Assembly: GCA_043799545.1 (NCBI GenBank)
Contig: JAZDNO010000011.1
Location: 1-36,808 of the forward strand
DNA length: 36,808 bases
Direction: 5' to 3'
From: Methanobacteriota archaeon
GTDB taxonomy: Archaea > Thermoplasmatota > Thermoplasmata > SG8-5 > DAIRED01
Shown here: positions 11,871 through 34,752 of the stretch, piece by piece
How positions within the stretch are numbered: the stretch's first letter is position 1
Layout: each line of letters opens with the position of its first letter
Made by a program: the position numbers and the translations under genes
The notes under the pieces: generated by a model
What the model was told of the DNA's origin: nothing
The model's database searches: none
What the model saw: only the letters and a program-made list of their open reading frames with translations

Positions 11871-11874
11871 CCGG

Positions 11875-13166: not shown

Positions 13167-14360
13167 ATGAAGATTTTGAAGAACGCGGCGGCATTGGCGA
13201 TAACCGTGAGCATGATGCTGGCGGCCTTCGCGGCTGTGCCAGTCGTGGGAATCGATGTGCCGAGCCCGCAGACGGACACGGGAACGATAACTGTGAACAC
13301 GGTGTATCCGCACATCTACGATTTCGATTTGACCGTGGGCAACGGGGGCGGGCTGAGCGCGATGAACTCCCAGATAGACGTGGACGATGGAACGATGGCG
13401 TCCGTATACACCCTGGAGGCGCAGGGCTGGTACGTGCCAGGCGGAAACCGCGTGGATGTGGTGAACGTGTGGATGTGGTTCGACGACGGTGCGACGCTCA
13501 CGGATGATTCCGGCTCAATCGGCGCACCGTGGGGACCGAACCGCGGCGTGCAGTTCACGTACGACGCAAATGCCGTGCCGACTTTCCAGATAACGAGCCT
13601 GGGATACACGGAGGAATGGCTCCTCGACGACGGGGTGGCGCTTTCCGACTTCGGCTCCAGCGGCCAGATGTGGTGGTGCAACTTCACGTTCATACCGATG
13701 GAGCAGGTCTGGGCAGCGAGCGGCGGGTTCACGCAGCTGCCGGGTAACATATACGGTGGCGGCAACGAGACGCAGAGGGACGCTGACAACGCCGACCCCC
13801 GCGACGCACTGGACGACGCCAACACATGGGATGTCAAGGTGATAGCCAGCGATTCGACGGTCTTGGCTGACAGCATGCCATCGTTCGACGAGTACGGCTA
13901 CTACATCTTCAGCGCCATCAACACCGTAGGCTGGATTGGCGGCGGCGACGTGACGGGAAACGGCCCGCCGAGCACGCCGGGCGTGGGGTTGAACCCGAGC
14001 GCCTACGACTGGGTCTGGTCCGCCAACATCCAGTACGATTTGATGGTCAGCATCGACGCCGACCTGGCAGGTGTGGCAGTCCCGGCAAACACGATCCCGG
14101 TGACGGCCATTTACATCGTGGGCGGCGAGCGGGCATTGGGCACATTCTCAGCTGCGGCCACCGACCAGTACATCTTGGGCGACCAATTGGCCAACACCGG
14201 CGAACAGCCCGTCGAATTCCTGAGGACCACGACGACGCAGTCGGGGGCGGGAGACGGCACGGGCGGCGGATTCCAGGTTTCCTGGCTTTGCGACATACCC
14301 GGAGTGCCGGAAGACACATACCAGGCGACGATAACGTACACTCTCGCAACGGACCCGTAA
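13167..14360 (+). CDS. Array P1: secreted protein, signal peptide plus shared C-terminal module only (397 aa)
   Basis: Sec-type signal (MKILKNAAALAITVSMMLAAFAAVPVVG), then directly VNTVYPHI, NSQIDVDDG, FDEYGYY and WLCDIPGVPEDTYQATITYTL, the motifs shared with P2-P8. Confidence 0.85.
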   Translation: MKILKNAAALAITVSMMLAAFAAVPVVGIDVPSPQTDTGTITVNTVYPHIYDFDLTVGNGGGLSAMNSQIDVDDGTMASVYTLEAQGWYVPGGNRVDVVNVWMWFDDGATLTDDSGSIGAPWGPNRGVQFTYDANAVPTFQITSLGYTEEWLLDDGVALSDFGSSGQMWWCNFTFIPMEQVWAASGGFTQLPGNIYGGGNETQRDADNADPRDALDDANTWDVKVIASDSTVLADSMPSFDEYGYYIFSAINTVGWIGGGDVTGNGPPSTPGVGLNPSAYDWVWSANIQYDLMVSIDADLAGVAVPANTIPVTAIYIVGGERALGTFSAAATDQYILGDQLANTGEQPVEFLRTTTTQSGAGDGTGGGFQVSWLCDIPGVPEDTYQATITYTLATDP

Positions 14361-14382
14361 GAGTCCGGTTGAAAGTGGCAAA

Positions 14383-14432
14383 ACCCTTTTCCCTTTACTT
14401 TTCATTTATTCAAAATTTAAATTTCATTTTCA
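14383..14432 (+). terminator. T-rich tract after P1, putative archaeal oligo-T terminator
   Basis: CCCTTTTCCCTTTACTTTTCATTTATT...TTTCATTTT directly after the P1 stop, in an otherwise GC-rich region. Confidence 0.45.
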
Positions 14433-14440
14433 CTCAGTAA

Positions 14441-14450
14441 TTATTTATAC
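14441..14450 (+). promoter_or_regulatory. Putative TATA box for P2
   Basis: TTATTTATAC about 35-40 nt upstream of ATG 14485; GAGGG RBS at 14474-14478. Confidence 0.45.
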
Positions 14451-14484
14451 GGGCACGTTCATTTAACGAGCAAGAGGGTTTCGC

Positions 14485-16669
14485 ATGAATTACGCAAGGT
14501 TGTTGGCGCTGTGCCTCACGGTCGCGATGGTTTTCTCCGGAGCGGTCTCGATGTCTCCATCGGTCAAGGCGGCCGACACCACCAGCCAGTGGTTCAGCGT
14601 GATACCCGGTGCGCCAGGCGTGGAATTCAGGGACGCGGAGTGGGCGCCAGGGGGGAGCCACGCGCTCTTCGTCGGCTACGATTCCGGGCCAGGACGCGGT
14701 AGCGCCTGGTGGTACAACCCTCTCGACGAATCATGGTACGACATCACGCTCACCAACGGCTCCTCGGACGGCCTCGAGCTGGAAACGGTGGAATTCTGGA
14801 ACGACTGCATGGTCGCCATGGGTGATTGCGGCCCGGCGGGGACGTGGTTCTACACGAACAAGACCAACAACCTGCTGGAGGCGAAGACGGATTTCGCCCT
14901 GGTCGGCGCCTACATCTACGATTTGATGTACATCGGCGGCACGATGTTCGCCTTCGGCCAGAACACCACGGCGGGGTATGCGATGTGCTGGTACAACAAC
15001 GGGACGGGCTGGCAGCACAGCTGGGGCGCTCCGAGCCACGCATCGAGCGTTTACTACGGGGCGGACTGGTACGCCTACGGACCGAACGTCAGCATATTCA
15101 TGGTCGGTTCGTGGGACGACGCCGGCACCACGCGCGGCCTATATCAGGAGTACAACGTCACCCCGATGAACATCACGACGATATCCGATACCTTCGAACT
15201 GGAGTTCACGGACATCGAGCTGGACGCCTCGAACGCGACTTATCCGAGGATGCTGATTACCGCAGGCGGGAGGGGGGCAGGAATGGCTGCGCTCTTCGTG
15301 GCCAAGTCCATTGGAGGATTGGCGTTCCATAACCTTGTTGGCATCGGCGACATACCCCTGATAACCAATCTGATGGGAATCGATGTGGACGAGCACGGGA
15401 CCGCGGTGGCCGTCGGGATCGAATCGGCCTACGGAGTCATTTACAGTATATATCGGGCCGGGGGCAGCACGGTCGTGATGAAGAGGAGCGACACCAGCAC
15501 GATGTTCTCGGGAAAGGTGTTCAGAGACGTCAGGATCCGTCCGTTCGGCGTCCAGATGGCGCTGACTGTCGGCTCGGCCTTCAAGTACTCGTACACGTCG
15601 ATACTCTCGCCGATCCGGGTGGACGCGTCGACGCCGCACATCAGCTACATAACGATGTGGCCGATAAGCGACCCTTCGAAGGAGGTCCTTAACCACCAGA
15701 TAGACGTCGACGACGGCTCGTCCGCGACCCAGTACACGCTCTCGGTCTGCATATGGGACAACCTCGGAATAGACCACGTCACTGCCATGAACATCTGGAT
15801 GTGGTACGACATGGGCCTCACGGGCGTTGACGCCCCGGCGGTCTTCGACGACGCGGACCTGGCGAACCAGCGCATCCGCTTTTCCATCAGCAACGGCGCG
15901 GGGGGCGGCGCTCCAATTCCCGCTCTCCGGCGAGACGACCCTGGTTGGCGGAGGGTGGGAGGAGTCCGGCACCTACGCCTGGGTGAACATCACATTCTCC
16001 CCGCACGAGCAGGTCCGGTGGGCCGACAGCGACATGGGAATCTGGAACCAGGACGTCACGACGGACTGGCGGTACGACGGCGACACGAGCGGCGGCTGGA
16101 ACCCCGAGGACCAGAGCGACAACTCCGGTTTCGCCCCGCTTGACGAGGACCTCACCTGGGACATCAAGGTCCAGATTGAGGACGACTCCCCCGTGACGAA
16201 CTACGCCCGCGCATACGACGAGTTCGGCTTCTTCAAGTACACCTACCTGGGCAACGCTGGTATTGTGAACGGAGGCAGCGTCTATGGCTCGGGGGCACCG
16301 AACACTAACGATGTCGCGCTCTCGCCATCGAACGTGAACATCACGTTCAGGGCCAATTGCCCCTACAGGCTCGGCGTGCAGCTCATGGGCGACCTTAACG
16401 GATTGGCGGTTCCGGCCAACACCATCGACGGCGACGCCGTCAGCATACAGGGCGGGGACGCGGCAAGGACTTACTTTGCCGCGGGAGGCAGCACGATATA
16501 CCTCATCGGACCCGCGCTGAACCAGGACCCGCTCGGGAGCGGCAGATTCACGACCACCAGCACTTACGACTCGGACCCGGATTGGGATCCGGTTTTCTGG
16601 TGGTGCGACATCCCTGGAGTGCCCGAAGACCAGTACAGCGACAGCCTGACGTACTCTCTATCGAGCTGA
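14485..16669 (+). pseudogene. Array P2: secreted propeller-head + shared-module protein, split by a +1 frameshift (real mutation or sequence error)
   Basis: ORF 14485-16143 has the signal peptide, head and first half of the module; the overlapping frame (15827-16669) holds the rest. Removing one G from the G6 run at 15900-15905 gives one 727-aa ORF colinear with the paralogs. Confidence 0.85.
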
Positions 16670-16713
16670 GGGGCTGTGCACTGGATCAAGGCGCTCGATG
16701 AGGGGCTGAGTTC

Positions 16714-16733
16714 TTCCGTCTCAACCGACGGAA
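16714..16733. repeat. Perfect 7-bp inverted repeat (TTCCGTC-N6-GACGGAA) between P2 and P3
   Basis: Seen directly; could be a hairpin or an operator. Confidence 0.5.
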
Positions 16734-16752
16734 TCGCAAACGGTCCTTCAGT

Positions 16753-16769
16753 CGAAGCTTATTTATAGA
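16753..16769 (+). promoter_or_regulatory. Putative BRE + TATA box for P3 (and the coupled P3-P6 block)
   Basis: CGAAGCTTATTTATAGA about 30-37 nt upstream of TTG 16799. Confidence 0.45.
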
Positions 16770-16798
16770 CACGCGAGTATAGCTATTCGAGGGGCTGC

Positions 16799-18979
16799 TT
16801 GCTGAGCGGTTTGAAGGCTTCGCTGGTCATTGTCATTTCTCTGATGGCGGTCACGTCCGCCTTGGTCATCCCGACCGGGACGAAAGCGGCGGACACTTCC
16901 GACGCGCCGGTGACTGAAATTTCGGGGGCGCCAGGAGACGCGAGCTTCTACGACGTGGCTTGGAGCCCGGACGGCAAGTTCGCCCTCTGGGTCGGTGCCG
17001 ACGGCGGCACCGGGAGGGGCTGCATTTACAGGTACGATCCGTCCGCGTCAGGAGCCGGAGCATGGCAGATGCTTTTCGTTTTCGGGGCAGACCCGTCCGC
17101 TGGCTTGATCAGGGCCATCGCTTACGTGCCGTGGGAGGGCGTATTCGTCGCACTCGCCTTCGGCGACCCATCCGGATTCTGGTATGAGGTCAACAGCGAC
17201 GGTTCGAACATATGGGAGTTCTCGGACGCGACGCTGGTGAATAACTACATTTACGACGTGGTTCTGGACAACGCCAACGGCAGGCTCCTCGCGGTGGGCC
17301 AGGATATGAACCCGGCGTACGGGGGCGTCTGCTATCAATTGTGGAGCGGTTCGTCGGACTGGACGATACTGTTCTACGACGGCAATCCGAACGCAGCCCT
17401 GGTCGGTGTGGCGTGGGATCCATATTACGGATACATTTACGCCGTGGGATACGACAGCGACGTGGGTTGCGGACTGTATTACCGCTACACGGGAACCCTC
17501 GATTGGGCGGGGATGGGGTCTTATCCGAGCGAATACATGGACATGATGTTCTCCGACATCGTGTATTCTCCAACGGCCAGCTCGATGGTGCTGTGCCTGT
17601 CACAGAGGACGTCCGGAATTGCTGGCATCTACTACGGTATCTCCCCTGGCTATGAAAACCTCCAGCCCGTCGGCAGCGAGTCTGACTGGTCGAACATCTA
17701 CATGCAAATGGACATAGACTCGTCCGGAACGATAATAGCGGTCGGTTACCTCGACGGCGTCGATTACGGTCGAATCCACAGGATTTGGCGCGACGCGTTC
17801 ACAAACGGTTGGCACGTATCGCAGGCGTCAACGGATGGGGCATCGATGATGGGCTACAACTTCCTCTCGGTCGCAATCCGCCCCGCGCGCATCCCGATGG
17901 CCCTCATCGCCGGGAGCGCCTTCGTCTACCACTACACCTCCGCCAACTCCGGCGTCCAGGTCAACGCCGCCTACCCGCACATAAACTACGTTGACATTTT
18001 CGCCGCTGGCACTTCCACGAGCTACGTCAACAGCCCCGTCGACGTCGACGACGGGTCGAACACCATCGGCTACGACGTGACAGTGAGCGTCTATCACTCT
18101 GCTGGCCAGGGCTACATTACGAACGCCGAGGTGAGCCTCTTCAGGGACGGCGGGACGAACGAGTCCATGCCCTGGTGGGGCGCGGGCGGGTACGCAGCCG
18201 TGGATTATGGGAACATGAGGGCGCGGTACGTCTGGAACAGAGGATCTCCCGACACCTGGTCGGTGATATGCCCGACCATTACGGGGAGCGAGGAGATAAC
18301 CCTCGTGCCATCCGAATGCTCGCGCGTGGACGAGCCCGACGGTCAGAACGTCACAATCAAGTTCCGGGTTTACTTCCACCAGCAGGCTCGGGCGGCGCTG
18401 GGGCCGTTCACCGAGGGCGCTGGCGTGCGCAACGCGAACCAGCATCTCATGTCTGCCTACAACGACTTCGACAGCTGGAACATTTGGTTCAGCGTCGTCG
18501 ATACGGGCGGCGGCATAGACTACGCATACGACGAGTTCGGGATTTACCAATACACCTACATCGGTTCTTCAGGGCTTCCAGGTGGCGGTGCGGTCTCCGG
18601 TTCCGGCGCCCCCGGATTGACGGTCATGCTCTCCCCGACCTCCGACGTCACATACTCCGCCAATTGCCCGTATCGCCTGAGCGCGTCCATCACTGATCTG
18701 ACTGGCGACAACCTCTTCGGGACGATACCGGCCACGTCATTCCAGACCCAGGGAGGAAACCTGCCCGCAAGCTGGATGCCTGGTGCGGACATGCCGATGT
18801 ACTACTACGGCTCGGCAGTGCCTGCGTACCAGAACCCGCTCGACGCGGGACGCACTACCACGTCCAGCACCGGCGACTTCAATCCAGATGCCGATCCGAT
18901 AATATGGTGGTGCGTGATACCGCCAGCCCTTGAAGACCGCTACAGGGGAACGATAACGTACGCGATAAGCCACGGATAG
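16799..18979 (+). CDS. Array P3: secreted propeller-head + shared-module protein (726 aa, TTG start)
   Basis: Signal peptide ending TKA|ADT; GAP...FYDVAWSPDGKFALWVG; AGSAFVY; YPHI; YDEFGIYQYTY; ANCPY; WWCVIPPALEDRYRGTITY. Confidence 0.88.
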   Translation: MLSGLKASLVIVISLMAVTSALVIPTGTKAADTSDAPVTEISGAPGDASFYDVAWSPDGKFALWVGADGGTGRGCIYRYDPSASGAGAWQMLFVFGADPSAGLIRAIAYVPWEGVFVALAFGDPSGFWYEVNSDGSNIWEFSDATLVNNYIYDVVLDNANGRLLAVGQDMNPAYGGVCYQLWSGSSDWTILFYDGNPNAALVGVAWDPYYGYIYAVGYDSDVGCGLYYRYTGTLDWAGMGSYPSEYMDMMFSDIVYSPTASSMVLCLSQRTSGIAGIYYGISPGYENLQPVGSESDWSNIYMQMDIDSSGTIIAVGYLDGVDYGRIHRIWRDAFTNGWHVSQASTDGASMMGYNFLSVAIRPARIPMALIAGSAFVYHYTSANSGVQVNAAYPHINYVDIFAAGTSTSYVNSPVDVDDGSNTIGYDVTVSVYHSAGQGYITNAEVSLFRDGGTNESMPWWGAGGYAAVDYGNMRARYVWNRGSPDTWSVICPTITGSEEITLVPSECSRVDEPDGQNVTIKFRVYFHQQARAALGPFTEGAGVRNANQHLMSAYNDFDSWNIWFSVVDTGGGIDYAYDEFGIYQYTYIGSSGLPGGGAVSGSGAPGLTVMLSPTSDVTYSANCPYRLSASITDLTGDNLFGTIPATSFQTQGGNLPASWMPGADMPMYYYGSAVPAYQNPLDAGRTTTSSTGDFNPDADPIIWWCVIPPALEDRYRGTITYAISHG

Positions 18980-18989
18980 GAGGGAAACG

Positions 18990-21900
18990 ATGACCGACTC
19001 TACGCCCGCGACATGGCGCCGGAACATCGGGGCGCTCATCCTAGTGGCAGCGATGGTCCTCTCCGGCATCCCGGCCATCAAGGTCACCGGCGTCGGCACC
19101 GGCACGGAGCCTTTCCTGCCGATCGATTCGGCTCCCGCATACACGTTCAGCGACTTCGCGTGGGCAGACAACGGCACGACGGGACTAGCCGTGGGGAACA
19201 CCTCCGGGGACGGTCGAGTGTACCGTTACACCCCTCGAAACGACGCCTGGACTCCAGTAATCACATCCGCAGTTGATGGGTACAACGGCGTCGACTACCT
19301 TCCGGCGTTCAGCTACGCCGAAGGCTTCGAGGCGGGGACGACCGGTTGGACATTCAAGAACTGGATGGGGACGCTGGCGTGGCACCGGGTCATACCCACG
19401 ACGCTCCCGACACCAGGCTCGTATTCGCACGCCCCAGCCCACGGCGGGTCCTACGACCTCTGGTTCGGCAAAGACGCGACGGGAAATTACGATGATTCCG
19501 GCGCGATCGTGAGGGGAAGCGCGGTATCTCCGAAGATGTTGCTTTCGAACGCCTTCTCGTCGTTCAGCCTCGACTTCTGGCACTGGTATGAGACCGAGAG
19601 CGGCACAAGCTTTGACAGGAGGCAACTTTACATCAAGGACACGATGTCATCCACCTGGGTCCTGTTACAGGATTGGACGACCGGTTATGCGCCATACTCG
19701 AAGGCCTCCATAGACCTGACCCCGTGGATGGGGAAGACAATCCAGCTCAACTTCACCTTCGATTCGGGCGGGGACGGCTCGGTCAACAACATGTGCGGCT
19801 GGCACGTGGACGACATATCCGTGACCTCCAATTCGGGCGTCTTCGTGTACGTCGGCACTACCAGCACAGGGAGTACGGTTTACACCACGGATGGCTATTC
19901 TGGCGTGATGTCGATGGGGCTGACCACCAGCTTCAGGGACGTCGCCTGCGGCGTCAGAGGGAAGTTCATGGCCGTCGGATCGATGGGGGCAGCGCGCTAT
20001 TTCAACGGCACGGCTTGGACGGCAATCACGGGCGCCCTCGCCACCGACACGCTCACGGCAATCGACCACAATGGCACCCACTACTTCGTCGTCGGTTTCA
20101 CCATGGCCGGAGCGGGAGTCTCATATTACATCGCCGACGATGAACTCGCCGCCGGGCGAACCACGTTCCACACAATACCCGACGCCCCGACGGCCAAGCT
20201 TTGGGGCGTCGACTGGAGTAACAACGCGATATCCGAGAGCGGAACCGGAGCCGCGGCGGCCGCCGCCACCGGCAATGTCTACGGATTCGGGAACCCGGAG
20301 CTTTGGAAGCCAATCGGCACGGTCAGCGTCCCGGATGCAAGGTACCGGCACGCGATGTGCTTCGACGATTCGAGCGATACTCTCGTCCTGTTCGGGGGCA
20401 ACGTCAACGGCGTTTACTCGAGCGACACGTGGGAGTACAGCCGATCGTCGGGAACGTGGGGTCTGATTACGCCCACGGGCTCGACCCCGCCCGCGAGGCA
20501 CAGCGCTGGCATGGTCTACGACACTTCCCTTCAAGCGTGCGTGCTCTTCGGAGGGACACAAGTCAGCGGTTATCGCTCCGACACATGGCTTTACTACTCG
20601 CGCAACAACACTTGGTTGAACGTGACCACTGGGGTCTACCCGACTGCGCGCAGCCAGCATTCGATGGCTTACGACCCCAGCTACCAGCGCGTTGTCATGT
20701 TCGGCGGCTACGATGGCTATGGCTACCGCACGGACACCTGGGTATGGCTCAGCGGCACGAAGTCGTGGTCGAACGTGACCTCGGGGCTTACCCCAACGAA
20801 GCGTGGCGGGGCGGCGATGACGTGGGACACTGCGCACGGCAGGGCCATCCTGTTCGGGGGGAGCAACGGCACCTCCAACGCCCAGACGTGGGCATTCGAC
20901 ACGGGTAGCAATACGTGGACCCTCAGGGGGACGGGCCCGATAACCCCTCGGGGCTATGCTGCGATGGCTTACGACCCTCTGAACGACATCCACGTTCTCT
21001 TCGGCGGTTCCTACGCCGGCTACTTGAAGGACACTTGGACGTACAACTACAACGCCAATCTGTGGACGCCCGTAGACACCCACGCCACCCCGCCCGAGCG
21101 TTACGCGTCCCCGATGGCTTACGATTCCGAATCGGGCAGGTTCCTGGTGTTTGGCGGATGGAATGCCGGCGGGTTCTTGAACGACATGTGGCAGTTCTCC
21201 CTCAGGAGCCCGTGGTTCGGCACCGCCGAGGGCACGAAACACGAGACGTTCTACGACGTTGAGTACGGCCCGGACGGCCAGGAAGCGCTGATGGTCGGCC
21301 ACAACACATCCACCAGCACCGCTGTGATATACAAGTGGTCATCCGCAGGAGGCCAGGGCGGCATATCCAAGCTCATACGACCGCTGGATGCTGAGCTCGA
21401 CGACCACATACTCTACGGCGTGGCGTACAATCCAAAGGACGCGGCGGGCAGCGCCATCGCTGTCGGGGCGTCGGCGTTCGCCATATGGCCCAGCAACATC
21501 CAGGCCAGCACTGTGACAGTGGACGTCATCTACTCACACATCGCCTACCTGGACATCTACGACCAGGGCACGATGGCAAGCAGGCTCAACTCGCAGGTCG
21601 ATGTCGACCCGGGCACGGGCACAGTCGCCTACGACCTCGTCGTGCGGGCGTGGAACGTCCTCGGTCAGTCGCAGATAACCCAGGTCGATGCGTACATGTG
21701 GTACTCGGGCGCGGCTGGTGCCGGAACCGAGCCGAGCCCGTTCGAAGTCGCCGGATACGAGAACCAGCGCATACACCTGAGGTGGGTGCGGGGCTCGCCC
21801 GATACATGGGCGCGGGTCTATCCCATGGTCGGCTCGGACGACGAGACGACGCTGATAGTCGGCAGCTGTGCGCGCGTGGACGACGTGGACGGACTGAACG

Positions 21901-22550
21901 TCACATTGAGCTTCCGTTTCTCCCCTCATCAGCAGGTCCGCGCTGCCAACTCGAACTTCGCGTGGAACCAGCCCTCGGGGACGCGCTACGGCGGTGGCGT
22001 GATAGAAGGTCAGTCGAACCCGGCGGCGCTGGACGACGATTTCTGCTGGAACATCAGGGTGGCGGCGACGGACGGGGGAGGCAACGAAGCCAACGCGTAC
22101 GACAACTACGGCTATTTCAAGTACACTTACGTCGGGACGGCTGGCTTGCCGGGCGGTGGCAACGTCTACGGTTCGGGTCCGCCGAGCACATCCATAGTAC
22201 TATCTCCCAGCGACCAGGACGTCACCTTCTGCTCCAACGAGTACTACAGGTTGATGGTGACTGTCACGAACCTCACCGGCCAGTCGACAGGCCAGAGGAT
22301 CCTTCGGACCTCGCTCTCGCTGCAGGGCGGGAACCTCGCCGTGAGCCCGTTCGACATCGTTGGAACGCCGTTGTACATGTTCGGGTCGGCCGTGGGAGTG
22401 ATGGGACCGCGCCCGGATAAACGGACGACGACTACCTCAACCGGCGATGGCCTGCCGGACCTCGATCCGGTCATATGGCGCTGCAACATCCCAAGCGTTC
22501 CCGAGGACAGATACATGGGTACGGCGGTGTACTCGGTGGTGCACTCATGA
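18990..22550 (+). CDS. Array P4: secreted 1186-aa member with an inserted jelly-roll (cleaved-adhesin/MAM-like) domain and six Kelch repeats
   Basis: Signal peptide; jelly-roll segment ~19308-19826 (EGFE...W...FWHWYETE...DLTPW...IQLNFTF...GWHVDDI); six R..H.M.(F/Y)D...LFGG...DTW repeats 20337-21215; shared module with YDNYGYFKYTY and WRCNIPSVPEDRYMGTAVY. Confidence 0.9.
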   Translation: MTDSTPATWRRNIGALILVAAMVLSGIPAIKVTGVGTGTEPFLPIDSAPAYTFSDFAWADNGTTGLAVGNTSGDGRVYRYTPRNDAWTPVITSAVDGYNGVDYLPAFSYAEGFEAGTTGWTFKNWMGTLAWHRVIPTTLPTPGSYSHAPAHGGSYDLWFGKDATGNYDDSGAIVRGSAVSPKMLLSNAFSSFSLDFWHWYETESGTSFDRRQLYIKDTMSSTWVLLQDWTTGYAPYSKASIDLTPWMGKTIQLNFTFDSGGDGSVNNMCGWHVDDISVTSNSGVFVYVGTTSTGSTVYTTDGYSGVMSMGLTTSFRDVACGVRGKFMAVGSMGAARYFNGTAWTAITGALATDTLTAIDHNGTHYFVVGFTMAGAGVSYYIADDELAAGRTTFHTIPDAPTAKLWGVDWSNNAISESGTGAAAAAATGNVYGFGNPELWKPIGTVSVPDARYRHAMCFDDSSDTLVLFGGNVNGVYSSDTWEYSRSSGTWGLITPTGSTPPARHSAGMVYDTSLQACVLFGGTQVSGYRSDTWLYYSRNNTWLNVTTGVYPTARSQHSMAYDPSYQRVVMFGGYDGYGYRTDTWVWLSGTKSWSNVTSGLTPTKRGGAAMTWDTAHGRAILFGGSNGTSNAQTWAFDTGSNTWTLRGTGPITPRGYAAMAYDPLNDIHVLFGGSYAGYLKDTWTYNYNANLWTPVDTHATPPERYASPMAYDSESGRFLVFGGWNAGGFLNDMWQFSLRSPWFGTAEGTKHETFYDVEYGPDGQEALMVGHNTSTSTAVIYKWSSAGGQGGISKLIRPLDAELDDHILYGVAYNPKDAAGSAIAVGASAFAIWPSNIQASTVTVDVIYSHIAYLDIYDQGTMASRLNSQVDVDPGTGTVAYDLVVRAWNVLGQSQITQVDAYMWYSGAAGAGTEPSPFEVAGYENQRIHLRWVRGSPDTWARVYPMVGSDDETTLIVGSCARVDDVDGLNVTLSFRFSPHQQVRAANSNFAWNQPSGTRYGGGVIEGQSNPAALDDDFCWNIRVAATDGGGNEANAYDNYGYFKYTYVGTAGLPGGGNVYGSGPPSTSIVLSPSDQDVTFCSNEYYRLMVTVTNLTGQSTGQRILRTSLSLQGGNLAVSPFDIVGTPLYMFGSAVGVMGPRPDKRTTTTSTGDGLPDLDPVIWRCNIPSVPEDRYMGTAVYSVVHS

Positions 22551-24754: not shown

Positions 24755-24757
24755 GAA

Positions 24758-26935
24758 ATGGAAAAAGCGAAGAAGCTGGCGGCATTCGCCCTCGCGGCGC
24801 TGATGCTAGCGTCGGCGCTTGCCTTCCCCGCTGAATCCTCGGACACGTCGAACACGTTCTTCGAGGACCTTGCACCCGGCGCACCCTACAACGGCTACAC
24901 CTTCCACGACGTTGCCTGGACTCCGGACGGCGCGTGGGCGCTGTTCGTCGGCACGGGCGGCGGGTTCGCGAGGGCGGCGTGGTACAATGCTAACACGAAC
25001 ACATGGTCAAGCGCGTACGCAGGAACCAGCACCGTGATACTGTCCTCGGTCTGCTACGACCCCAGCACGACTCGGTTCATCACGCTCGGGAACAACGCTG
25101 CATCGGGATCCATCTTCTACGTAACTGCCTTGGGCGGCACCTTGCAGGTAGGCTCAAACGCCCAGTTGGCATACGTCACCATAAACGATATGGTTTACTC
25201 GACGTACGCCGGCGGCATCATCGCCGTGGGCAAGAGGGTATCCCCGGGTACGCCGACCGGACCTGTAGCCTTCAGGATAGCCACCGCTGGGATGTCTGTG
25301 AACGCGTACATAGACGACACTACGGCACATCCGTCTGGTGAATGGTACGGAGTGGATGGGTACAGCAACGCATTCTACTTCGTCGGATACGGCGGCGACG
25401 GGTACAACCTATTCCACTACACCGTCGCCGGGACAAAGTATTCTGGCAACATGTCCGTTCAGGGATTCTTTCAGGACGTGGCCGTGGACACATCGACAAC
25501 TCCCATGAAGCTCTACATCGTTGCCGGGAGTCGCAACGCCAATGTCAAGGGTATATGGACGACCGCCCTCAGCGGATCTGTGCCGTCGACCACCTTGAAC
25601 GGCCACGGCTCAATCCCGCAGGCGAACCAGTTCTATGCGGTGTCCATGGACAAGAGCGGCGTCTCGCCCGGGCGGGCCGTCATCGTCGGATACAACGGCT
25701 CTTACGGTCTCGTGTACGACGCCTGGACCGACGTTTCGGGGAGCGTACGGGTGGCCCAGCGCAGCAGCAGCATCGCGCTCTTCGCGGCAAAGCAATTGAG
25801 GGGCGTAGCCACCCGGCCGTCCGGCATACCGTTCGCCCTCGTCGCCGGCTCGGCGTTCAAGTATTCATACATGTCCGCTCCGTCAAATATACAGGTGGAC
25901 ACGGTCGTCCCGCACATCGCCTACATTGAACTTTACAATGCGGGCACTCTCACGAGCAAGCTCAACACTCAGATTGATGTGGATTCCGGCAGCGGCGACC
26001 TCGAGTACGACCTCGTGGTGAAGGCGTGGTCCAACGCCGGCCAGGCCAACATCGCACAGGTCAACGCATACCTGTGGTACGACGGCGGCTCGAACGAAAC
26101 CTTCCCGTCTTGGGGCGGTTCGGGCTTCACCTCGCCAGGGTACGAGAACTTGCGCGCGACATTCCGCTGGCTCCGTGCAGGCAACGCCTTCTCTATCGAA
26201 TACCCCCTCACGGGCGAGACTACGCTGGACGTGGCCGCCTGCACTTTCACGGACGAGCCGGACCTGAAGAACGTCACGGTAAAATTCAGATTCTGCCCGC
26301 GCCAGCAGGTCCGTTTCGCGGACGGCCCATTCGGGCCCGAGGGACCGGGAATGCGTTACAGCTTCGTCCCCGAGGGACAGACCGGCTCGGCCCTGAACAA
26401 TTTCGACAGCTGGAACATCCAGATGACCGTGTGGGACATCGGGGCATCGCAGGCGAACGGCTTCGACGAGTTCGGGACGTTCCGGTACACCTACATTGGC
26501 AGCGCTGGCTTGCCCGGCGGAGGGAACCTGTACGGCGCGGGTCCGCCGAACACGCTCATCACGCTCTCCCCCGGCGACGAGAACGTGACCTTCAGCGCCA
26601 ACTGCCCGTACCAGCTCCTGCTCAGGATTACCGACATGCCCGGCCAGACCGGCCCCGACACGATTCCGGCGACCGCGCTTGATGCGATGGGCGGGGCGAA
26701 CATAACCTCTTACACGCCGTTCCCCGGAGCAGGACAGCCCCTGTGCCTCATAGGGGCAATCGCCCCGAATCCAGTTTGGTTTTACTATCCGCAGAACACT
26801 GGCCTGACGACTACGACTTCAAACGCGGACTTCAACGGTGCGTCCTGGGAGCCCGTGATGGTGCGATGCAACATCCCGAACGTGGTCGAGGACAGGTACC
26901 TCGGGATAGCGACATACTCGGTGGTGCATCCATGA
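24758..26935 (+). CDS. Array P6: secreted propeller-head + shared-module protein (725 aa)
   Basis: Signal peptide; PGAP...FHDVAWTPDGAWALFVG; GSAFKYSY; VDTVVPHI; FDEFG; ANCPY; RCNIPNVVEDRYLGIATY. Confidence 0.88.
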   Translation: MEKAKKLAAFALAALMLASALAFPAESSDTSNTFFEDLAPGAPYNGYTFHDVAWTPDGAWALFVGTGGGFARAAWYNANTNTWSSAYAGTSTVILSSVCYDPSTTRFITLGNNAASGSIFYVTALGGTLQVGSNAQLAYVTINDMVYSTYAGGIIAVGKRVSPGTPTGPVAFRIATAGMSVNAYIDDTTAHPSGEWYGVDGYSNAFYFVGYGGDGYNLFHYTVAGTKYSGNMSVQGFFQDVAVDTSTTPMKLYIVAGSRNANVKGIWTTALSGSVPSTTLNGHGSIPQANQFYAVSMDKSGVSPGRAVIVGYNGSYGLVYDAWTDVSGSVRVAQRSSSIALFAAKQLRGVATRPSGIPFALVAGSAFKYSYMSAPSNIQVDTVVPHIAYIELYNAGTLTSKLNTQIDVDSGSGDLEYDLVVKAWSNAGQANIAQVNAYLWYDGGSNETFPSWGGSGFTSPGYENLRATFRWLRAGNAFSIEYPLTGETTLDVAACTFTDEPDLKNVTVKFRFCPRQQVRFADGPFGPEGPGMRYSFVPEGQTGSALNNFDSWNIQMTVWDIGASQANGFDEFGTFRYTYIGSAGLPGGGNLYGAGPPNTLITLSPGDENVTFSANCPYQLLLRITDMPGQTGPDTIPATALDAMGGANITSYTPFPGAGQPLCLIGAIAPNPVWFYYPQNTGLTTTTSNADFNGASWEPVMVRCNIPNVVEDRYLGIATYSVVHP

Positions 26936-26955
26936 TGACATTTATTCATATCTGT

Positions 26956-27057
26956 GGGAGGGAACACTCATGAACAAAAGGGCGATGGTGGGTGAACATT
27001 CCTGGAGTGGTGGAAGACAGCTACGTCAGCCAGGTGACGTGGAGCTTGACGAATTGA
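26956..27057 (+). pseudogene. Deletion remnant of a ninth array gene (RBS + first codons fused out of frame to the last 23 codons)
   Basis: GGGAGGGA RBS, ATG 26970 (MNKRAM), then 26986-27057 encodes WWVNIPGVVEDSYVSQVTWSLTN* in another frame, matching the P7 and P8 C-termini. Confidence 0.8.
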
Positions 27058-27081
27058 GGTCAATAATATGAAAATGGAGGC

Positions 27082-29244
27082 ATGAAAATGGAAATTAAAA
27101 GAGCGGTGTTGGCGTGCGTGTTGTGCGCGGCGATGGTAGCTTCGGGGCTGTTCGTGGCGACCCCGGCGAAGGCGTTGGACACGAGCAACGTCTTGGTCGT
27201 GGACATACGCGGGGCGGTGAACCCGCCCGCCGGAATTAACTTCTTCGACGTGGCATGGACCTCCGACGGCAAGTACGCGCTTTTCGTTGGGACGGATGGA
27301 TTGAACGGCGTGGCCTGGTGGTACAACCCGACGAAGGTCAGCGATGCGGCGTGGACTCCGGCCGCGCTGAACGCCGGAAGCCCGGTCGCGACCCAGTTCA
27401 AGTCCGTGCTGTGGGACCCTGTGAATTCGATGTTCATCGTCGTAGGTGACGCGATATCCGGCCGCTGGTACCACGTCGCAGCGCCCGGCGAATTCCTCAT
27501 CGAATCCGCGCCGGATGCAGACCTACAGGCCGTAGGCCCATACATAGAGGACATGGTGTTCAATGGCGGGGTTATTTACGCGGCTGCGCGGATGGCCATT
27601 ATGGGATACATCTTCGCCTTCGACTGCGCGGGATGGGACTGGGCCCTCGTGAGCGGCTCGACGCTATCGAACGCCAACTGGTACGCATGCGAGTTTTACA
27701 GCAACAGGGTTTACTGCTGCGGCTCCGATGGTGGCACTAGCGGTCTTTACGCCTACTATGACCTGCCAGCCGGGCCATGGCACACCGCTGCGACGATAGG
27801 CTCGCTAATGTTCACAGACATGGCCCTCGACACGTTCGACTACGACCGGATGCTGCTGACAACCAAGGGACGCGTCGGGTTTCAATTCGGCGTGATGGAG
27901 GCGAGCGGCGCCGACCTCGACATGCTCGATGGCCTGGCAAATCTCCCCCTCGCATACGACCTCAACGCCATAACCGTAGACTCCGAAGGATTCGCCATTG
28001 CGGTGGGCCAGGACACGGGCTCGGGCAACGGCCTGGTCTACGACATCTGGTGGACCGGGTCCACGACATCGTATGTCAAGAGGAGCGCAGCAGCGCCCCC
28101 GTACAGCGGCCAGAACTTCAAGGGCGTCGCGATGCGCCCGACCGGCGTCCAGATGGCTTTAATTTCCGGCAGCTCCTTCAAGTATTCGTACACCTCGGTG
28201 CTCGCGCCGATACAGGTCGACACTGGCGTTCCCCACGTCGATTACCTTGACTTGTACCCGACGGGAACCGGCCTTGGCAGCAGCGTGCTGAACTCCCAGG
28301 TGGACGTCGATATCGGAGATTCGAGCACGATTTACACGCTCGAAATACGCATCTTCGACAACCTCGGCGTTGCGCGGATGACAAACCTCGAGGCTTGGCT
28401 CTGGTACGACGAGGGCAACACGGCCACGGACGTCGGCCCGCTGTTCAGCGTCCCCGGTTCCGAGAACAAGCGCATGCGCTTCAACATCACCTCCGGCAAC
28501 GTTGTCACGCAGGAGTACCCGGCGCCTGGCCCGGTCGAGGAGACATCGCTCATCTCCGGCAACTGGCAGGTAATGGATGCGACGAGCGCCATAGTCGTGC
28601 TCAATTTCTCGTCGCACCAGCAGGTTCGATGGGCGGCTAGCGCGGGAGGCTTCGTCGAGGGCCCGGGGACGCGTTACGGCGGAATGGTCTCCGAGGGCCA
28701 GTCCACAATCAACGCCCTGAACGCGGCCAACACGTGGGACATCAAGGTGAACGTCACGGACGACGCGCCGACGACGAACTACGCCTCCGCGTACGACGAG
28801 TTCGGCTTTTACAAATACACCTACCTCTCCACATCCGGGATACCGAACGGCGGGGCGGTCTACGGTTCGGGCGCTCCAGGAACTCCTAACGTCGTCATGA
28901 GCATCTCCGGCGAGAACGTCACGTTCGCGGCGAACTGCCCGTACACGCTCAACGCCCAACTGATGGGCAACCTAATCGGAGTCGCCTTCGCTGGGACAAT
29001 CAACGCGAACCAGATAAGCATCCAGGGCGGGGCGATAGGCGCGAGGACGGCATTCGCGCTCGGCGGCGGCACGCAGACCCTCATAGGCGCGGCGCAGCAA
29101 CCGCTCGACAGCTTGCGGACGACCACGACGAGCTCGTGGGACGGCAACTCCGCGACTTGGGAGCCGGTCCGCTGGTGGGTGAACATACCTGGGGTGGTGG
29201 AAGACCGCTACGTCAGCCAGGTGACGTGGAGCTTGACGAATTGA
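27082..29244 (+). CDS. Array P7: secreted propeller-head + shared-module protein (720 aa)
   Basis: GGAGG RBS; signal ending AKA|LDT; FFDVAWTSDGKYALFVG; VDTGVPHV; YDEFGFYKYTY; WWVNIPGVVEDRYVSQVTWSLTN. Confidence 0.9.
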   Translation: MKMEIKRAVLACVLCAAMVASGLFVATPAKALDTSNVLVVDIRGAVNPPAGINFFDVAWTSDGKYALFVGTDGLNGVAWWYNPTKVSDAAWTPAALNAGSPVATQFKSVLWDPVNSMFIVVGDAISGRWYHVAAPGEFLIESAPDADLQAVGPYIEDMVFNGGVIYAAARMAIMGYIFAFDCAGWDWALVSGSTLSNANWYACEFYSNRVYCCGSDGGTSGLYAYYDLPAGPWHTAATIGSLMFTDMALDTFDYDRMLLTTKGRVGFQFGVMEASGADLDMLDGLANLPLAYDLNAITVDSEGFAIAVGQDTGSGNGLVYDIWWTGSTTSYVKRSAAAPPYSGQNFKGVAMRPTGVQMALISGSSFKYSYTSVLAPIQVDTGVPHVDYLDLYPTGTGLGSSVLNSQVDVDIGDSSTIYTLEIRIFDNLGVARMTNLEAWLWYDEGNTATDVGPLFSVPGSENKRMRFNITSGNVVTQEYPAPGPVEETSLISGNWQVMDATSAIVVLNFSSHQQVRWAASAGGFVEGPGTRYGGMVSEGQSTINALNAANTWDIKVNVTDDAPTTNYASAYDEFGFYKYTYLSTSGIPNGGAVYGSGAPGTPNVVMSISGENVTFAANCPYTLNAQLMGNLIGVAFAGTINANQISIQGGAIGARTAFALGGGTQTLIGAAQQPLDSLRTTTTSSWDGNSATWEPVRWWVNIPGVVEDRYVSQVTWSLTN

Positions 29245-29249
29245 GGCAT

Positions 29250-31442
29250 ATGAAGACTGCGAAGTTGGTGGCATTGGCCGTCGCGGCGGCGATGGTAGCG
29301 GCGAGCCTGCTCGTCGCCACCCCGGCAAAGGCCGCGGACACCAACAACGACCTCTTCACGACGCTTCCCGGGGCGCCTGTTGGCGTGACCTTCTTCGATG
29401 TGGCTTGGAGCGACGACGGCAAGCTAGCTTTGTTCGTCGGTACGGACTGGGCGCACGGCAAGGCGTACTACTACCAGCCCGCAGGCGACATCTGGACGGA
29501 AGCGACGTTCGGAGGAGGCTTCCTGCCGTGCTACGTTTTGTACACGGTCACCTACTGCCCCAACTCATGGAACGGCCCGAAGTTCGCGGGCACAGGCCAG
29601 TGCGGCGGGCTCGGGTACCTCCTGTGGTTCGCTGGTCCAGGCCAGGACACGGATTATTCCAGCACGAGCTACCTTGCCAACTTCGAAGTCCACGACTTGG
29701 CCTACAATCCGGGCCTGGGCTCCATGGGCACGCTCTACCTATGCGCGAACGATGCGCCCGGCAACGAGGTCAAAATACTCGATATCGACCTGGCCAGCGG
29801 CGGGTTCAACGCCATAATGGACGAGGCGAAGACGTCGGCGACGCTGTACGGCGTCGAATTCGACCCCGCGACGAACGACGTATACGTCGTCGGCGTGCAG
29901 GGCTCCGGCGTGCTCTACGAGCAGTTCGATTACAGCATGGGCACAACGACGCCCCTCTCATTTCCATACGGCCAGGTCATCTCGGACATCGTTTTCGACT
30001 CGCACCACGCGCCTAACCGGATGATAATCACATTGCTGTACCAAGGGGTGGGCGACGTGACGAGCGTCTACGAGGCCAGGTTCTCGGTCTCGGGCTACAC
30101 TGCGGTGACGCCGATAGGCCAGTCTCCCGACTACACCTACTTCAACGCCATCGCGATGGACGGAGACGGGCGCGCCGTGCTCGTGGGGATGGACGACGAG
30201 ATAACCACCGAGGGCAGGATATACGACCTGTGGACGACCGGCTCCGGGACCACGCACCTCGCGAATAGGGTGGAGGGCTCCATAGCCTTGGAGGAGTACA
30301 GGGGCGTCGCCATCCGCCCGACGGGCGTGCAGATGGCGCTCGTCGCCGGTTCCGCTTTCAAATATTCCTACACCTCCGTCCTTGGGCCCATCCAGGTCGA
30401 TACGGGGGTGCCGCACTTCAACTACATCGACATCTACCCCTACGGCGACACGCTCGCAGAGAGCGTCATCAACAGCCAGGTCGACGTCGACATCGGCGAC
30501 TCGATGACGAACTACACCATCGAGGCCGAGGTGTACGACCCCCTAGGCGTGGCGAGGATGCAATTCCTCCAGGCGTACATCTGGCACGACGGCGGGGTGG
30601 AGAACCAGACTTTGCCGACCTGGGGGGGCGTCGGCTTCGACTCGCCCGGGTACGAGAACCTGAGGATGCACTTCGAAATCACGGCGGGCGGCGCCACGAC
30701 GCAGCATTTCCCAGGTGGCCCGGATGAGGAGACCACCCTCATGGGCGGCGGCTGGAGCCCAATCAACTCGACGAGCGCCAAGGTGTGGCTGAACTTCTCC
30801 GCGCACCAGCAGGTGAGGTGGGCGGCCGGGCCGTTCACGGAGCTTCCTGCGAACATGCGCTACGACCCCGACCTCGATGGGCCAGAGCCAGAGGAGCAGT
30901 CGACGATAAACGCCCTGAACGACGCGGGCACATGGAATATGAGGCTCTCCGTTTACGACGACGCCCCGACAACGAACTACGCCATGGCGTACGACGAGTT
31001 CGGGTTCTACAAGTACACGTACCTCTCCACGTCCGGCATACCGAACGGCGGGGCGGTCTACGGCTCCGGGGCGCCTGGAACGCCGGACGTCGTCATGAGC
31101 GTCTCCGGCCAGAACGTCACCTTTGCGGCGAACTGCCCGTACGGCTTGAACGCGCAGCTGATGGGGAACCTGGTCGGGGTCACGTACGCCGGGCTGATAA
31201 TGGGGAACCAGATAAGCATTAGCGGGGGGAACGTCGGCGCCAGGACCGCCTTTGGGGTGGGCGGCGGCACGGCGCAGCTCATCGGGCCCCTCCAAGCTCC
31301 GCTGGACAGCGAACGGACCACGACGACGAGCTCGTGGGACGGCAACTCCGCGACTTGGGAGCCGGTTCGCTGGTGGGTGAACATTCCTGGTGTGGTGGAA
31401 GACAGCTACGTCAGCCAGGTCACTTGGGCGATAATGAACTGA
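29250..31442 (+). CDS. Array P8: secreted propeller-head + shared-module protein (730 aa)
   Basis: Start placed at ATG 29250 (MKTAKLVALAVAAAMVAASLLVATPAKA|ADT), GAGG RBS upstream; same motif set; C-terminal 150 aa about 83% identical to P7 by hand count. Confidence 0.9.
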   Translation: MKTAKLVALAVAAAMVAASLLVATPAKAADTNNDLFTTLPGAPVGVTFFDVAWSDDGKLALFVGTDWAHGKAYYYQPAGDIWTEATFGGGFLPCYVLYTVTYCPNSWNGPKFAGTGQCGGLGYLLWFAGPGQDTDYSSTSYLANFEVHDLAYNPGLGSMGTLYLCANDAPGNEVKILDIDLASGGFNAIMDEAKTSATLYGVEFDPATNDVYVVGVQGSGVLYEQFDYSMGTTTPLSFPYGQVISDIVFDSHHAPNRMIITLLYQGVGDVTSVYEARFSVSGYTAVTPIGQSPDYTYFNAIAMDGDGRAVLVGMDDEITTEGRIYDLWTTGSGTTHLANRVEGSIALEEYRGVAIRPTGVQMALVAGSAFKYSYTSVLGPIQVDTGVPHFNYIDIYPYGDTLAESVINSQVDVDIGDSMTNYTIEAEVYDPLGVARMQFLQAYIWHDGGVENQTLPTWGGVGFDSPGYENLRMHFEITAGGATTQHFPGGPDEETTLMGGGWSPINSTSAKVWLNFSAHQQVRWAAGPFTELPANMRYDPDLDGPEPEEQSTINALNDAGTWNMRLSVYDDAPTTNYAMAYDEFGFYKYTYLSTSGIPNGGAVYGSGAPGTPDVVMSVSGQNVTFAANCPYGLNAQLMGNLVGVTYAGLIMGNQISISGGNVGARTAFGVGGGTAQLIGPLQAPLDSERTTTTSSWDGNSATWEPVRWWVNIPGVVEDSYVSQVTWAIMN

Positions 31443-33370: not shown

Positions 33371-33601
33371 TCACTTCTGGAGCCTTAATATATCATCTAC
33401 TGTCAAACCCGCGTCCTTTATTATGTGCAGTAACAGTCCTGGCTTCAGTGTATCGTGCATTGGGACGGTCACCATCTGACGGGCGCCTGCCGACGTATCC
33501 TTCATGCGCACGTGGCTCCCGCGCTGCCTGATGACGATGTAACCTGTCTTGCTCAGAATCTTCACAAGTTCTTTACCAGATATTCGCGGCAACCTAGTCA
33601 T
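33371..33601 (-). CDS. hicA: HicA family toxin (mRNA interferase)
   Basis: 76 aa; LPRISGKELVKIL...RQRGSHVRM...VTVPMH...LKPGLL. Confidence 0.9.
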   Translation of the reverse strand: MTRLPRISGKELVKILSKTGYIVIRQRGSHVRMKDTSAGARQMVTVPMHDTLKPGLLLHIIKDAGLTVDDILRLQK

Positions 33602-34750: not shown

Positions 34751-34752
34751 AG

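Follow-up and report, generated by a model that had tools for sequence, protein, structure and literature searches.

Several described surface systems invite comparison with the locus analyzed here. The Sec-dependent Pam pili of CPR bacteria comprise the pilins PamA/B/E, PamT, the membrane-anchored chaperones PamC/D, and the anchor PamR; PamB is a two-domain protein of 38.7 kDa, and the donated linker and the CTD site are the most conserved parts (bioRxiv 10.64898/2026.03.03.709456). In Lactobacillales and Bacillales, small WxL, large WxL, DUF916/CscA, and CscD proteins have been proposed to form a Gram-positive surface complex, Csc/WxL (PF13731; Siezen 2006, PMC1534035; Hassan and Williamson 2022, PMC9772566). 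TLP-1a/b, known as an environmental fibril, assemble by donor-strand exchange, the protomer being a single domain that carries its donor strand at the N terminus (PDB 9IKJ/9IKK; PMC11494351). At the level of architecture, the ectodomain of integrin alpha chains (PDB 1JV2) combines a 7-bladed propeller head with the Ig-like “leg” domains that follow it.

We analyzed a window of 36,808 nucleotides (the whole stretch of DNA considered) from an uncultured Thermoplasmata archaeon, in which an array of eight co-oriented paralogs, P1 to P8, spans positions 13167-31442 of the plus strand (Table 1). Together with two membrane anchors encoded elsewhere in the genome, their products probably build an adhesive structure tethered to the cell surface, of a type new to archaea. 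A preliminary description of the sequence had presented the system as a candidate new archaeal fiber or adhesin system; it does have precedents, as both Pam pili and the Gram-positive Csc/WxL clusters parallel it part for part. The likeness to Pam, drawn from the published description, extends to Sec signals and the lack of a dedicated trans-envelope machine, predicted subunits of ~39-55 kDa in which a highly conserved linker joins two beta-rich domains, partners that have Ig-like domains and a TM helix at the C terminus, a small putative anchor carrying an additional N-terminal strand, and several paralogous subunits in one locus. However, the system described here is archaeal, most of its subunits bear large propeller heads N-terminal to a shared module, this module has up to 20 matches per genome, and the anchor genes lie apart from the array in this genome.

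Table 1. Position and composition of the features in the window
Feature	Position	Strand	Description
Sugar-modification cluster	471-13013		upstream of array; Pfam
P1	13167-14360	+	signal peptide and bare two-domain module; 397 aa, pI 4.05; ORF and translation
P2	14485-16669	+	propeller head and module; two ORFs, 14485-16143 and 15827-16669
P3	16799-18979	+	signal peptide, 7-bladed propeller head, module; 726 aa, TTG start
P4	18990-22550	+	signal peptide, weak MAM-like match, Kelch propeller, propeller-like stretch, module; 1186 aa
P5	22547-24754	+	head and module; likely ATG start at 22547 overlaps P4 stop
P6 (P0002)	24758-26935	+	head and module; 725 aa; modelled representative
Remnant of deleted paralog (ninth gene)	26986-27059	+	P6-P7 spacer; three-way DNA alignment
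P7	27082-29244	+	head and module; 720 aa; C terminus ...YVSQVTWSLTN
P8	29250-31442	+	head and module; 730 aa from ATG 29250

The array and its surroundings

All eight proteins are acidic (pI 4.0 to 4.9) and, as first described, begin with a Sec-type signal, which is hydrophobic and has an AKA|ADT-type site. P2 is frameshifted, with one extra base in a G run at ~15898-15906 when judged against the intact ortholog in a relative (L001). The earlier statement that none ends in a TM helix or a PGF/PEF-CTERM-like tail also stands, as P1 to P8 are devoid of any C-terminal hydrophobic stretch; for lack of such a tail, an identity as PGF/PEF-CTERM sorting substrates was rejected. Type IV pilins and archaellins were discarded because the signals are of the Sec type and not class III; in addition, the mature proteins are all-beta and lack a helix at the N terminus. 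As for TasA-like fibers and archaeal bundling pili (TasA/camelysin, Peptidase_M73), Pfam gave no match, and no TasA or AbpA chain was among the fold matches listed. In agreement with the preliminary description, no named archaeal appendage family was matched in the Pfam, NCBIfam, and PDB-sequence searches.

Paralogy within the genome is far beyond chance (E values of 1e-23 to 1e-247), and contigs C1 and C24 carry two further members. An ortholog of P1 (P0055), 61% identical, keeps the upstream synteny. The longest ORFs of P5 and P8 start at 22475 and 29136, respectively; for P5, the position of the signal peptide suggests the ATG at 22547 as the likelier start. The remnant between P6 and P7 corresponds to the last ~23 codons and the stop of a P7/P8-type gene (91% mean column identity).

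According to Pfam, the upstream cluster encodes four GT4 glycosyltransferases, a UDP-GlcNAc 2-epimerase, a PIG-L deacetylase, a hexapeptide transferase, a B12-radical SAM enzyme, an NAD epimerase, and a xylose-isomerase-like TIM barrel, and the synteny of its last three genes with P1 is preserved in another metagenome. The toxin-antitoxin genes downstream are missing in the syntenic relative, and for this reason the idea of a functional link with them was dropped.

The embedding of the array in a glycosylation gene cluster is what one might expect of an S-layer-type glycoprotein coat, in which module-only proteins would form a two-dimensional lattice on the two anchors (SlaA/SlaB-like) and the head-bearing paralogs would decorate it through their modules. 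An anchorless canopy with membrane-anchored partners matches the SlaA/SlaB pattern, the module-only proteins of family f22 have 3.6-5.2 sequons per 100 aa, and an Ig domain of the Haloferax S-layer protein (7ptp) is among the fold matches (Z 7.4). Nevertheless, sequon density in P1 to P8 is ordinary (0.1-1.7 per 100 aa), the anchors show no coiled-coil stalk, and as many as 20 diverse-headed module matches in a genome of ~2 Mb are unlike known S-layer gene sets, so that we consider such a coat improbable.

Propeller heads on a shared module

The heads of P2 to P8, described from the sequence as beta-propeller-like, were modelled as 7-bladed beta-propellers with high confidence (pLDDT 89; VIA Z up to 31, reached by the P6 head against 7-bladed propellers). 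Their estimated length of ~350-400 aa does not apply to P4, whose head of ~840 aa has a Kelch propeller (Pfam Kelch families, E 5.5e-57) and a MAM-like region with a weak match (E 3.6e-4, under the Pfam cut-off). In relatives, the heads contain Kelch, ConA-like lectin (Laminin_G_3), or DUF2341 domains, the first two being of types that typically serve in binding. Full-length P6 had integrin alpha chains as its top Foldseek matches (E 2e-14), a resemblance of architecture only (~9% identity, TM 0.3), and P6 differs from them in having no detected FG-GAP or Ca-binding repeats, TM helix, or beta-chain partner.

The module comprises ~350 aa and is always C-terminal in P2 to P8, while it stands alone in P1. 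The ordered motifs first noticed in it, (I/V)xV(D/N)xxxPHI, NxxxDVDxG, FxxHxQVR, (Y/F)D(E/N)(F/Y)GxxxY, GGxxxGxGxP, xNCPY, a TTT run, and (C/V)xIPxxxEDxYxxxxT(Y/W), are real and conserved in alignments of 5 and 40 sequences. It had been called constant, which is right insofar as all eight proteins share it but not as to sequence: identity between copies is 33-51%, compared to 23-37% for the heads, with the pair P7 and P8 reaching 70% in the module and 37% in the head. Apart from Kelch and the weak MAM-like match in P4, neither the module nor P1 to P8 matched anything in Pfam, NCBIfam, or the PDB sequences.

The AF2 model of P1 (pLDDT 84) consists of two beta-sandwich domains (residues ~47-246 and 247-396), giving a predicted mature protein of ~39 kDa with two domains, like PamB. 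That of P6 (pLDDT 89) shows the propeller (35-370), a low-confidence linker (375-380), and the module (385-725). An enzymatic role for the module was rejected in view of its all-beta fold and the absence of any match to a catalytic family. Its two best-conserved 12-mers are FDEFGxYxYTxI, between the domains, and the C-terminal IPGVPEDTYxxT, the same pattern as in the donated linker and CTD site of Pam. The FDEFGxYxYT segment, the most conserved of the family, joins the two domains, and a conserved IxVxT strand motif that precedes domain 1 is unpaired in both monomer models (P1 and P6). We read the module joined by this segment as a putative assembly domain; the predicted two-domain structure, with its conservation peak between domains, would be compatible with a Pam-type pilin with a linker strand.

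Fold comparisons were generic. In Foldseek searches against the PDB, P1 retrieved tandem-Ig adhesins and pilins at TM 0.2-0.3 (CfaB fusions, FimH, AgI/II, and SdrG), VIA-align gave the module Z values ≤8.9, the level usual for any Ig-like domain, and a viral structure library yielded generic Ig-like matches alone. The sole PDB match of domain 2 (P1 247-396) was the TLP-1b protomer, on which it superposes over 132 residues with an rmsd of 3.2 and a Z of 7.9, a level expected of unrelated Ig-like folds. The complex prediction for two copies of mature P1 (score 0.30, mark 0.42) is uninformative as to binding.

Domain 1 is similar to the Wzt carbohydrate-binding domain (Z 7.6-8.4), and two enzymes, virginiamycin B lyase and CylK, are among the best matches of the propeller heads (Z 30-31). 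These similarities, and the fact that no protein of the array has an anchor of its own, would suit soluble binders or enzymes that are released into the medium and do not assemble, with propellers acting as lectins or lyase-like enzymes and the module as a carbohydrate-binding or stabilizing tail. We find this very improbable: Pfam matches of the heads include no catalytic family, a headless bare-module protein such as P1 is kept across lineages, and the tight co-occurrence and adjacency of the anchor genes would be left unexplained.

Anchors and distribution of the module

Contig C22 of the same genome encodes two type-I membrane proteins. The larger, anchor A (483 aa), combines Ig-like domains with a TM helix at its C terminus; its weak Pfam matches, Cep192_D3 (E 4.7e-5) and Hydin (E 0.28), are Ig domains of the PapD-like clan, and profile comparison indicated no relation to the module (hhalign probability of 1.0-1.5%). 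Anchor B (221 aa) consists of a highly conserved mature N-terminal strand (AGVGVxNVPP, its best-conserved part), a sandwich similar to domain 1, and a C-terminal TM helix. It aligned to module domain 1 over 107 columns with an hhalign score of 32.4 (reversed, 18.5; shuffled, ≤16.7) and a probability of 21%.

The label “anchorless” given to the proteins is true of P1 to P8 themselves but misleads, because the module genes co-occur almost perfectly with these two membrane-anchored partners, which had been overlooked. In a sample of 301 genomes from the phylum, anchor A was present in 26 of the 28 module-positive genomes and had a single weak match outside them. Among 31 relatives, all 19 anchor-positive genomes were module positive, and none of the eight module-negative genomes had an anchor. 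Anchors lie directly 3' of module-only genes in f22, f34, L058, and three genomes of the window's own order (G306, G320, and G303). In L058, the order is module-only gene, anchor A (E 3e-40), anchor B (E 7e-18), and an AAA+ protein that shares 52% identity with the AAA+ protein next to the anchors on C22. In the genome under study and a close relative, however, the anchors are unlinked to the array.

The module system occurs in a subset of uncultured Thermoplasmatota. Within the window's own order, 21 of 22 genomes have the module, with up to 20 matches in genomes of ~2 Mb (G311) and a tandem array of ~50 kb in another (G307). Several of these genomes have module-only genes of ~370-410 aa, and in f22 a giant protein is followed by two module-only proteins. 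The small-plus-large logic noted in the array, one bare-module protein and many head-bearing ones, was recovered in at least three other lineages.

An analogous set of parts is described for Csc/WxL clusters: a small acidic protein of signal and domain only, large proteins with the domain at the C terminus and variable heads, ConA-like lectins among them, an Ig-like protein whose TM helix lies at the C terminus, and a small protein that is likewise anchored (PMC1534035, PMC9772566). The array might accordingly encode a surface complex with no filament, in which the module would dock proteins non-covalently to the anchors or to a surface glycan and the heads would serve to capture polysaccharide or other ligands. 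Of the named language-model clusters, the three closest to P1 are all WxL (score 0.82, no more than a lead); the structure TM to WxL clusters is 0.40-0.44. There is also a similar, distal-type terminal motif of the form YxxxhT(W/Y)xhxxxP: P1 ends in YQATITYTLATDP and P7 in YVSQVTWSLTN, while a small WxL protein of pXO1 ends in YESKLTYSIVTGP. For this motif hhalign gave a score of 27.0 (reversed, 18.4; shuffled, ≤13.9), with a probability of only 8-20% over ~25 columns. Against this, the Pfam WxL HMM, which recovers the pXO1 WxL genes, matched neither 34 module sequences (E ≤1) nor the six-frame genome (E ≤10). The module, with its two domains, is twice as long as the WxL domain (130-190 aa) and contains no clear case of the first, proximal WxL motif with its Asp-x-Arg-Gly context, and DUF916 (the CscA family) is not among the Pfam matches listed for anchor A. 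WxL domains, reported from bacteria only, are thought to bind peptidoglycan, which the host archaea are not known to have. Altogether, we hold a Csc/WxL-like complex to be rather unlikely.

A proposed membrane-tethered assembly

The reading we prefer, with a probability of roughly 45%, is that the array encodes subunits of a membrane-tethered surface assembly built by beta-strand complementation and similar to Pam pili. In this assembly, the bare module P1 would serve as the structural subunit, and P2 to P8 would be alternative subunits displaying different 7-bladed propellers (in P4 also a Kelch propeller) as ligand-binding adhesins. Complementation between subunits, as in Pam pili, is the likeliest mechanism, and the assembly would need both anchors: A as a chaperone or platform bound to the membrane, B to tether the assembly. 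The conserved inter-domain and C-terminal 12-mers, the unpaired IxVxT motif, the conserved mature N terminus of anchor B, and the alignment of this anchor to domain 1 are features one would expect of strand complementation. The analysis shows the secretion signals, the modular paralogy, the two-domain fold model, the co-occurrence and adjacency of the anchors, and the lineage-wide expansion; assembly, strand exchange, adhesion, and the anchor roles are what we infer.

Some observations go against an assembly. No sequence homology to a pilin or chaperone came to light. The divergence of the module is unusual for subunits that have to co-assemble, its fold matches stay at the generic Ig-like level, and the anchors are separated from the array in this genome and a close relative. 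The profile match between anchor B and domain 1 exceeds its controls yet is far from proof. Of the major pilin with tip adhesins put forward in the preliminary description, secretion and modularity hold; polymerization into a fiber is putative, and the fold matches to pilins and the TLP-1b fibril are at background (Z ~8). Besides, no strict tip subunit is apparent because every head-bearing copy retains both candidate donor strands.

More speculatively, the module, the WxL domain, and the CPR Pam pilins could be distant kin within a single ancient class of Sec-dependent, usher-free strand-complementation surface fibers of single-membrane cells. The version in Thermoplasmatota would then be the first archaeal member, in which a pilin turned into a universal C-terminal “plug” by which one cell mounts a dozen or more different heads, of the propeller, Kelch, and lectin types, on one membrane-tethered fiber. 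We regard this kinship as distinctly unlikely.

The cell surfaces of uncultured Thermoplasmatota are essentially uncharted, and the module family, which carries no annotation, is among their largest expansions of secreted proteins. P1, the head-bearing paralogs, anchor A, and anchor B are concrete, testable parts from which structural work and metaproteomics can start. If strand complementation is indeed how the module assembles, chaperone-assisted, usher-free fibers, so far described for CPR bacteria only, would exist in archaea as well, which would also hint at the way in which the WxL/Csc complexes of Gram-positive bacteria, long unexplained, are put together.

Composition and predicted folds of the array proteins

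The eight-gene array belongs to a 2.06-Mb genome with 94% completeness, of which the window is the entire 36.8-kb contig C3. As stated in the preliminary description, its genes (P1 to P8) are co-oriented paralogs encoding secreted proteins; every product starts with a hydrophobic signal sequence whose site is of the AKA|ADT type, and the pI values span 4.0 to 4.9. When 5 and when 40 full-length homologs were aligned, the motifs listed there for the shared C-terminal module came out as conserved positions. The description is confirmed, with corrections. The module, described as constant, is instead conserved, with 33 to 51% identity between array copies, reaching 70% for the P7/P8 pair; the heads of these two are only 37% identical. 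Furthermore, P2 is broken: a G run that is longer by a single base than in the intact ortholog on a related metagenome contig splits it into two overlapping ORFs. The additional base could stem from misassembly, mark P2 as a pseudogene, or sit at a site prone to slippage.

Features of the array, its surroundings, and the candidate anchor genes (positions refer to the window unless a contig or locus is named)
Feature	Position	Strand	Description	Basis
Eight-gene array	13167-31442	+		ORFs
P1			397 aa; signal peptide, then shared module alone	
P2, P3, P5-P8			about 720-730 aa each; ~340-aa head ahead of module	
P4			1186 aa; longer head with weak MAM-like match (E 3.6e-4, below cut-off) and Kelch propeller (E 5.5e-57)	Pfam
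Further paralog	contig C1		1034 aa, Kelch head	
Further paralog	contig C24		570 aa	
Radical SAM enzyme	8156-9583	-	B12-binding	
G run in P2	15898-15906			
P6-P7 spacer remnant	26986-27059			
Two toxin-antitoxin pairs	31470-32083, 33371-33825	-	directly downstream of array	
Low-GC block	34000-36808			
Anchor A and anchor B	contig C22, locus L051, 64360-70456, including adjoining ATPases		483 aa and 221 aa	
Second anchor A paralog	C18:139527-140330		partial	
Giant N-terminus (family f22)	L009:5677-6100 and others			
Genes after anchors (family f22)	L009:16632-19484, L010:3854-7755			

The AlphaFold2 model of P6, built with 40 homologs (mean pLDDT 89), has seven four-stranded blades at residues 35 to 370, then a short low-confidence linker and an all-beta module at 385 to 725. 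The predicted propeller superposes on generic seven-bladed propellers (virginiamycin B lyase, CylK, and WD40 proteins) with Z of about 28 to 31, a result that names the fold but assigns no function. With full-length P6, Foldseek preferred integrin alpha ectodomains and a sialidase, in which a propeller precedes Ig-like legs; the likeness is one of architecture only. The P1 model (pLDDT 84) comprises two beta-sandwich domains, at about 47 to 246 (domain 1) and 247 to 396 (domain 2). Domain 1 gave many matches to Ig-like domains, with Z at most 8.9, while domain 2 matched a single solved chain, TLP-1b (Z of 7.9 over 132 residues), a donor-strand fibril from pond water (PMC11494351). Since these Z values are within the range reached by unrelated Ig-like folds, we consider these matches leads rather than assignments. 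The module sequence had no match in Pfam, NCBIfam, or the PDB sequences.

Membrane-anchored partners

The array proteins had been characterized as anchorless, which holds for the proteins themselves, as a C-terminal hydrophobic segment was found in none of the eight, but not for the system, in which two type I membrane proteins, anchors A and B, co-occur with the module. A purely soluble role, compatible with the former observation and at odds with the latter, appears very improbable. In the Thermoplasmatota family f22, the locus consists of a giant module-ended protein, two module-only proteins, anchor A (about 461 aa), and anchor B (about 204 to 230 aa), in that order, both anchors combining a signal peptide with a C-terminal TM helix, and anchor A followed by anchor B was seen in 29 ORF sets of the examined loci. 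In a phylum sample of 301 genomes, anchor A was found in 26 of the 28 that were module positive, with one weak hit only outside these. Among 31 relatives, all 19 with an anchor also had the module and the eight without the module lacked the anchor, although such counts overstate independence because the genomes are kin. The pattern is repeated in four or more families that were sampled separately.

In the genome containing the window, the next gene after the anchors encodes a 953-aa protein, which combines zinc ribbons at its N terminus with TM segments, a long coiled coil, and a ChlI-like AAA+ domain; the gene for another ChlI-like ATPase comes after it. A locus in a distant genome (L058) has a module-only gene directly followed by homologs of anchor A (E 3e-40), anchor B (E 7e-18), and, in the equivalent position, the 953-aa protein (52% identity). 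Within the window's own order, three genomes (G306, G320, and G303) carry an anchor A paralog immediately after a module-only gene. The partial second paralog on C18 sits at the extreme end of its contig, and the assembly gap has removed its neighbors. The f22 giants have an N terminus homologous to the first ~125 residues of anchor A (E 1e-11 to 1e-15), so they share a domain with the anchor as well as with the small subunits. After the anchors, f22 loci encode a membrane PAS-domain protein and a secreted C25 (gingipain-type) peptidase.

Predicted strand complementation and alternative readings

Across the whole family, conservation over 12 residues peaks at FDEFGxYxYTxI, between the domains, and at the C-terminal IPGVPEDTYxxT. 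Just ahead of domain 1, a conserved alternating IxVxT strand motif is unpaired in both monomer models (P6 and P1). In anchor B, the most conserved part is the mature N terminus, AGVGVxNVPP, and its ectodomain aligned with domain 1 with an hhalign score of 32.4 over 107 columns (the reversed control scored 18.5, and none of 20 column-shuffled controls exceeded 16.7). Taken together, these features point to beta-strand complementation. The best explanation, to which we assign a probability of roughly 45%, is a membrane-tethered, Pam-like assembly in which module proteins would join by strand complementation, P1 would be the structural subunit, and the propeller-headed paralogs would act as alternative adhesins. 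The fibre or adhesin system proposed earlier is upheld in part, its assembly from interacting subunits being putative.

The module and anchors, known here from genes and models, match in these features the Pam pili newly reported from CPR bacteria, which have two-domain, Sec-secreted pilins of 39 to 55 kDa, a conserved inter-domain linker strand that fills the C-terminal domain of the neighboring subunit, PapD-like chaperones with a C-terminal TM helix, and a membrane anchor with an extra N-terminal strand (bioRxiv 10.64898/2026.03.03.709456). Anchor A gave weak matches to Cep192_D3 (E 4.7e-5) and Hydin (E 0.28). We take both to be Ig domains of the PapD clan, and these are only weak hints that anchor A carries one.

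The gene-set logic of array and anchors equally mirrors the Gram-positive Csc/WxL cell-surface clusters (PMC1534035, PMC9772566). The three named language-model clusters nearest to P1 all belong to WxL (a score of 0.82, too low to be more than a lead), structural comparison gave TM values of 0.40 to 0.44 to WxL-containing clusters, and the module terminus carries a distal-type WxL motif, YxxxIT(Y/W)xLxxxP; for comparison, plasmid pXO1 encodes a small WxL protein with the C-terminal end YESKLTYSIVTGP. In profile-profile comparison only this terminus aligned (probability 8 to 20%, score 27.0 versus at most 18.4 in controls), and the WxL HMM had no match in the module sequences or the genome. Family membership is therefore not established, the resemblance being one of motif and organization. 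As a rival reading, a Csc/WxL-like docking complex seems rather unlikely.

Genomic surroundings and expansion of the family

A sugar-modification cluster lies upstream of P1. The radical SAM enzyme is located amid glycosyltransferases, suggesting a local glycan with an unusual, perhaps methylated, sugar. The array proteins could plausibly be glycosylated at the cell surface, although their sequon density is ordinary; the f22 module-only proteins have 3.6 to 5.2 N-glycosylation sequons per 100 aa. That the proteins form a glycoprotein coat is improbable. The syntenic relative lacks the downstream toxin-antitoxin pairs (HepT-like RNase with MNT nucleotidyltransferase, and HicA with HicB), and a 1752-aa NosD/beta-helix protein follows its array instead. 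In the terminal block, the GC content drops from about 0.60 to 0.50; besides a DUF354 gene, the block has two ORFs for which Pfam gave no significant match, and transfer may have brought in its sugar genes.

The gene order of the window is kept in a close relative, and the upstream neighbors of P1 are kept beside its ortholog. In the P6-P7 spacer, the final ~23 codons of a P7/P8-type gene survive together with the stop codon (mean column identity of 91% to both). They are the scar of a deleted ninth member and show that the array is still recombining.

A profile search of 1.84 billion representatives retrieved 315 module relatives, in which the module stands alone (about 350 to 420 aa) or is C-terminal in proteins of up to about 1850 aa. 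Heads in six large relatives scanned against Pfam included Kelch, ConA-like lectin (Laminin_G_3), and DUF2341, and two of the six had no match. The 28 module-positive genomes of the phylum sample were confined to four families, and the module was present in 23 of the 31 relatives, including 21 of the 22 from the order to which the window belongs. The number of matches in a genome reached 14 to 20, several of these relatives had module-only genes of about 370 to 410 aa, and one genome (G307) had a tandem array of about 50 kb. Given this spread and the high copy numbers, the eight-gene array is a modest instance of a family that spans the lineage and is actively expanding.
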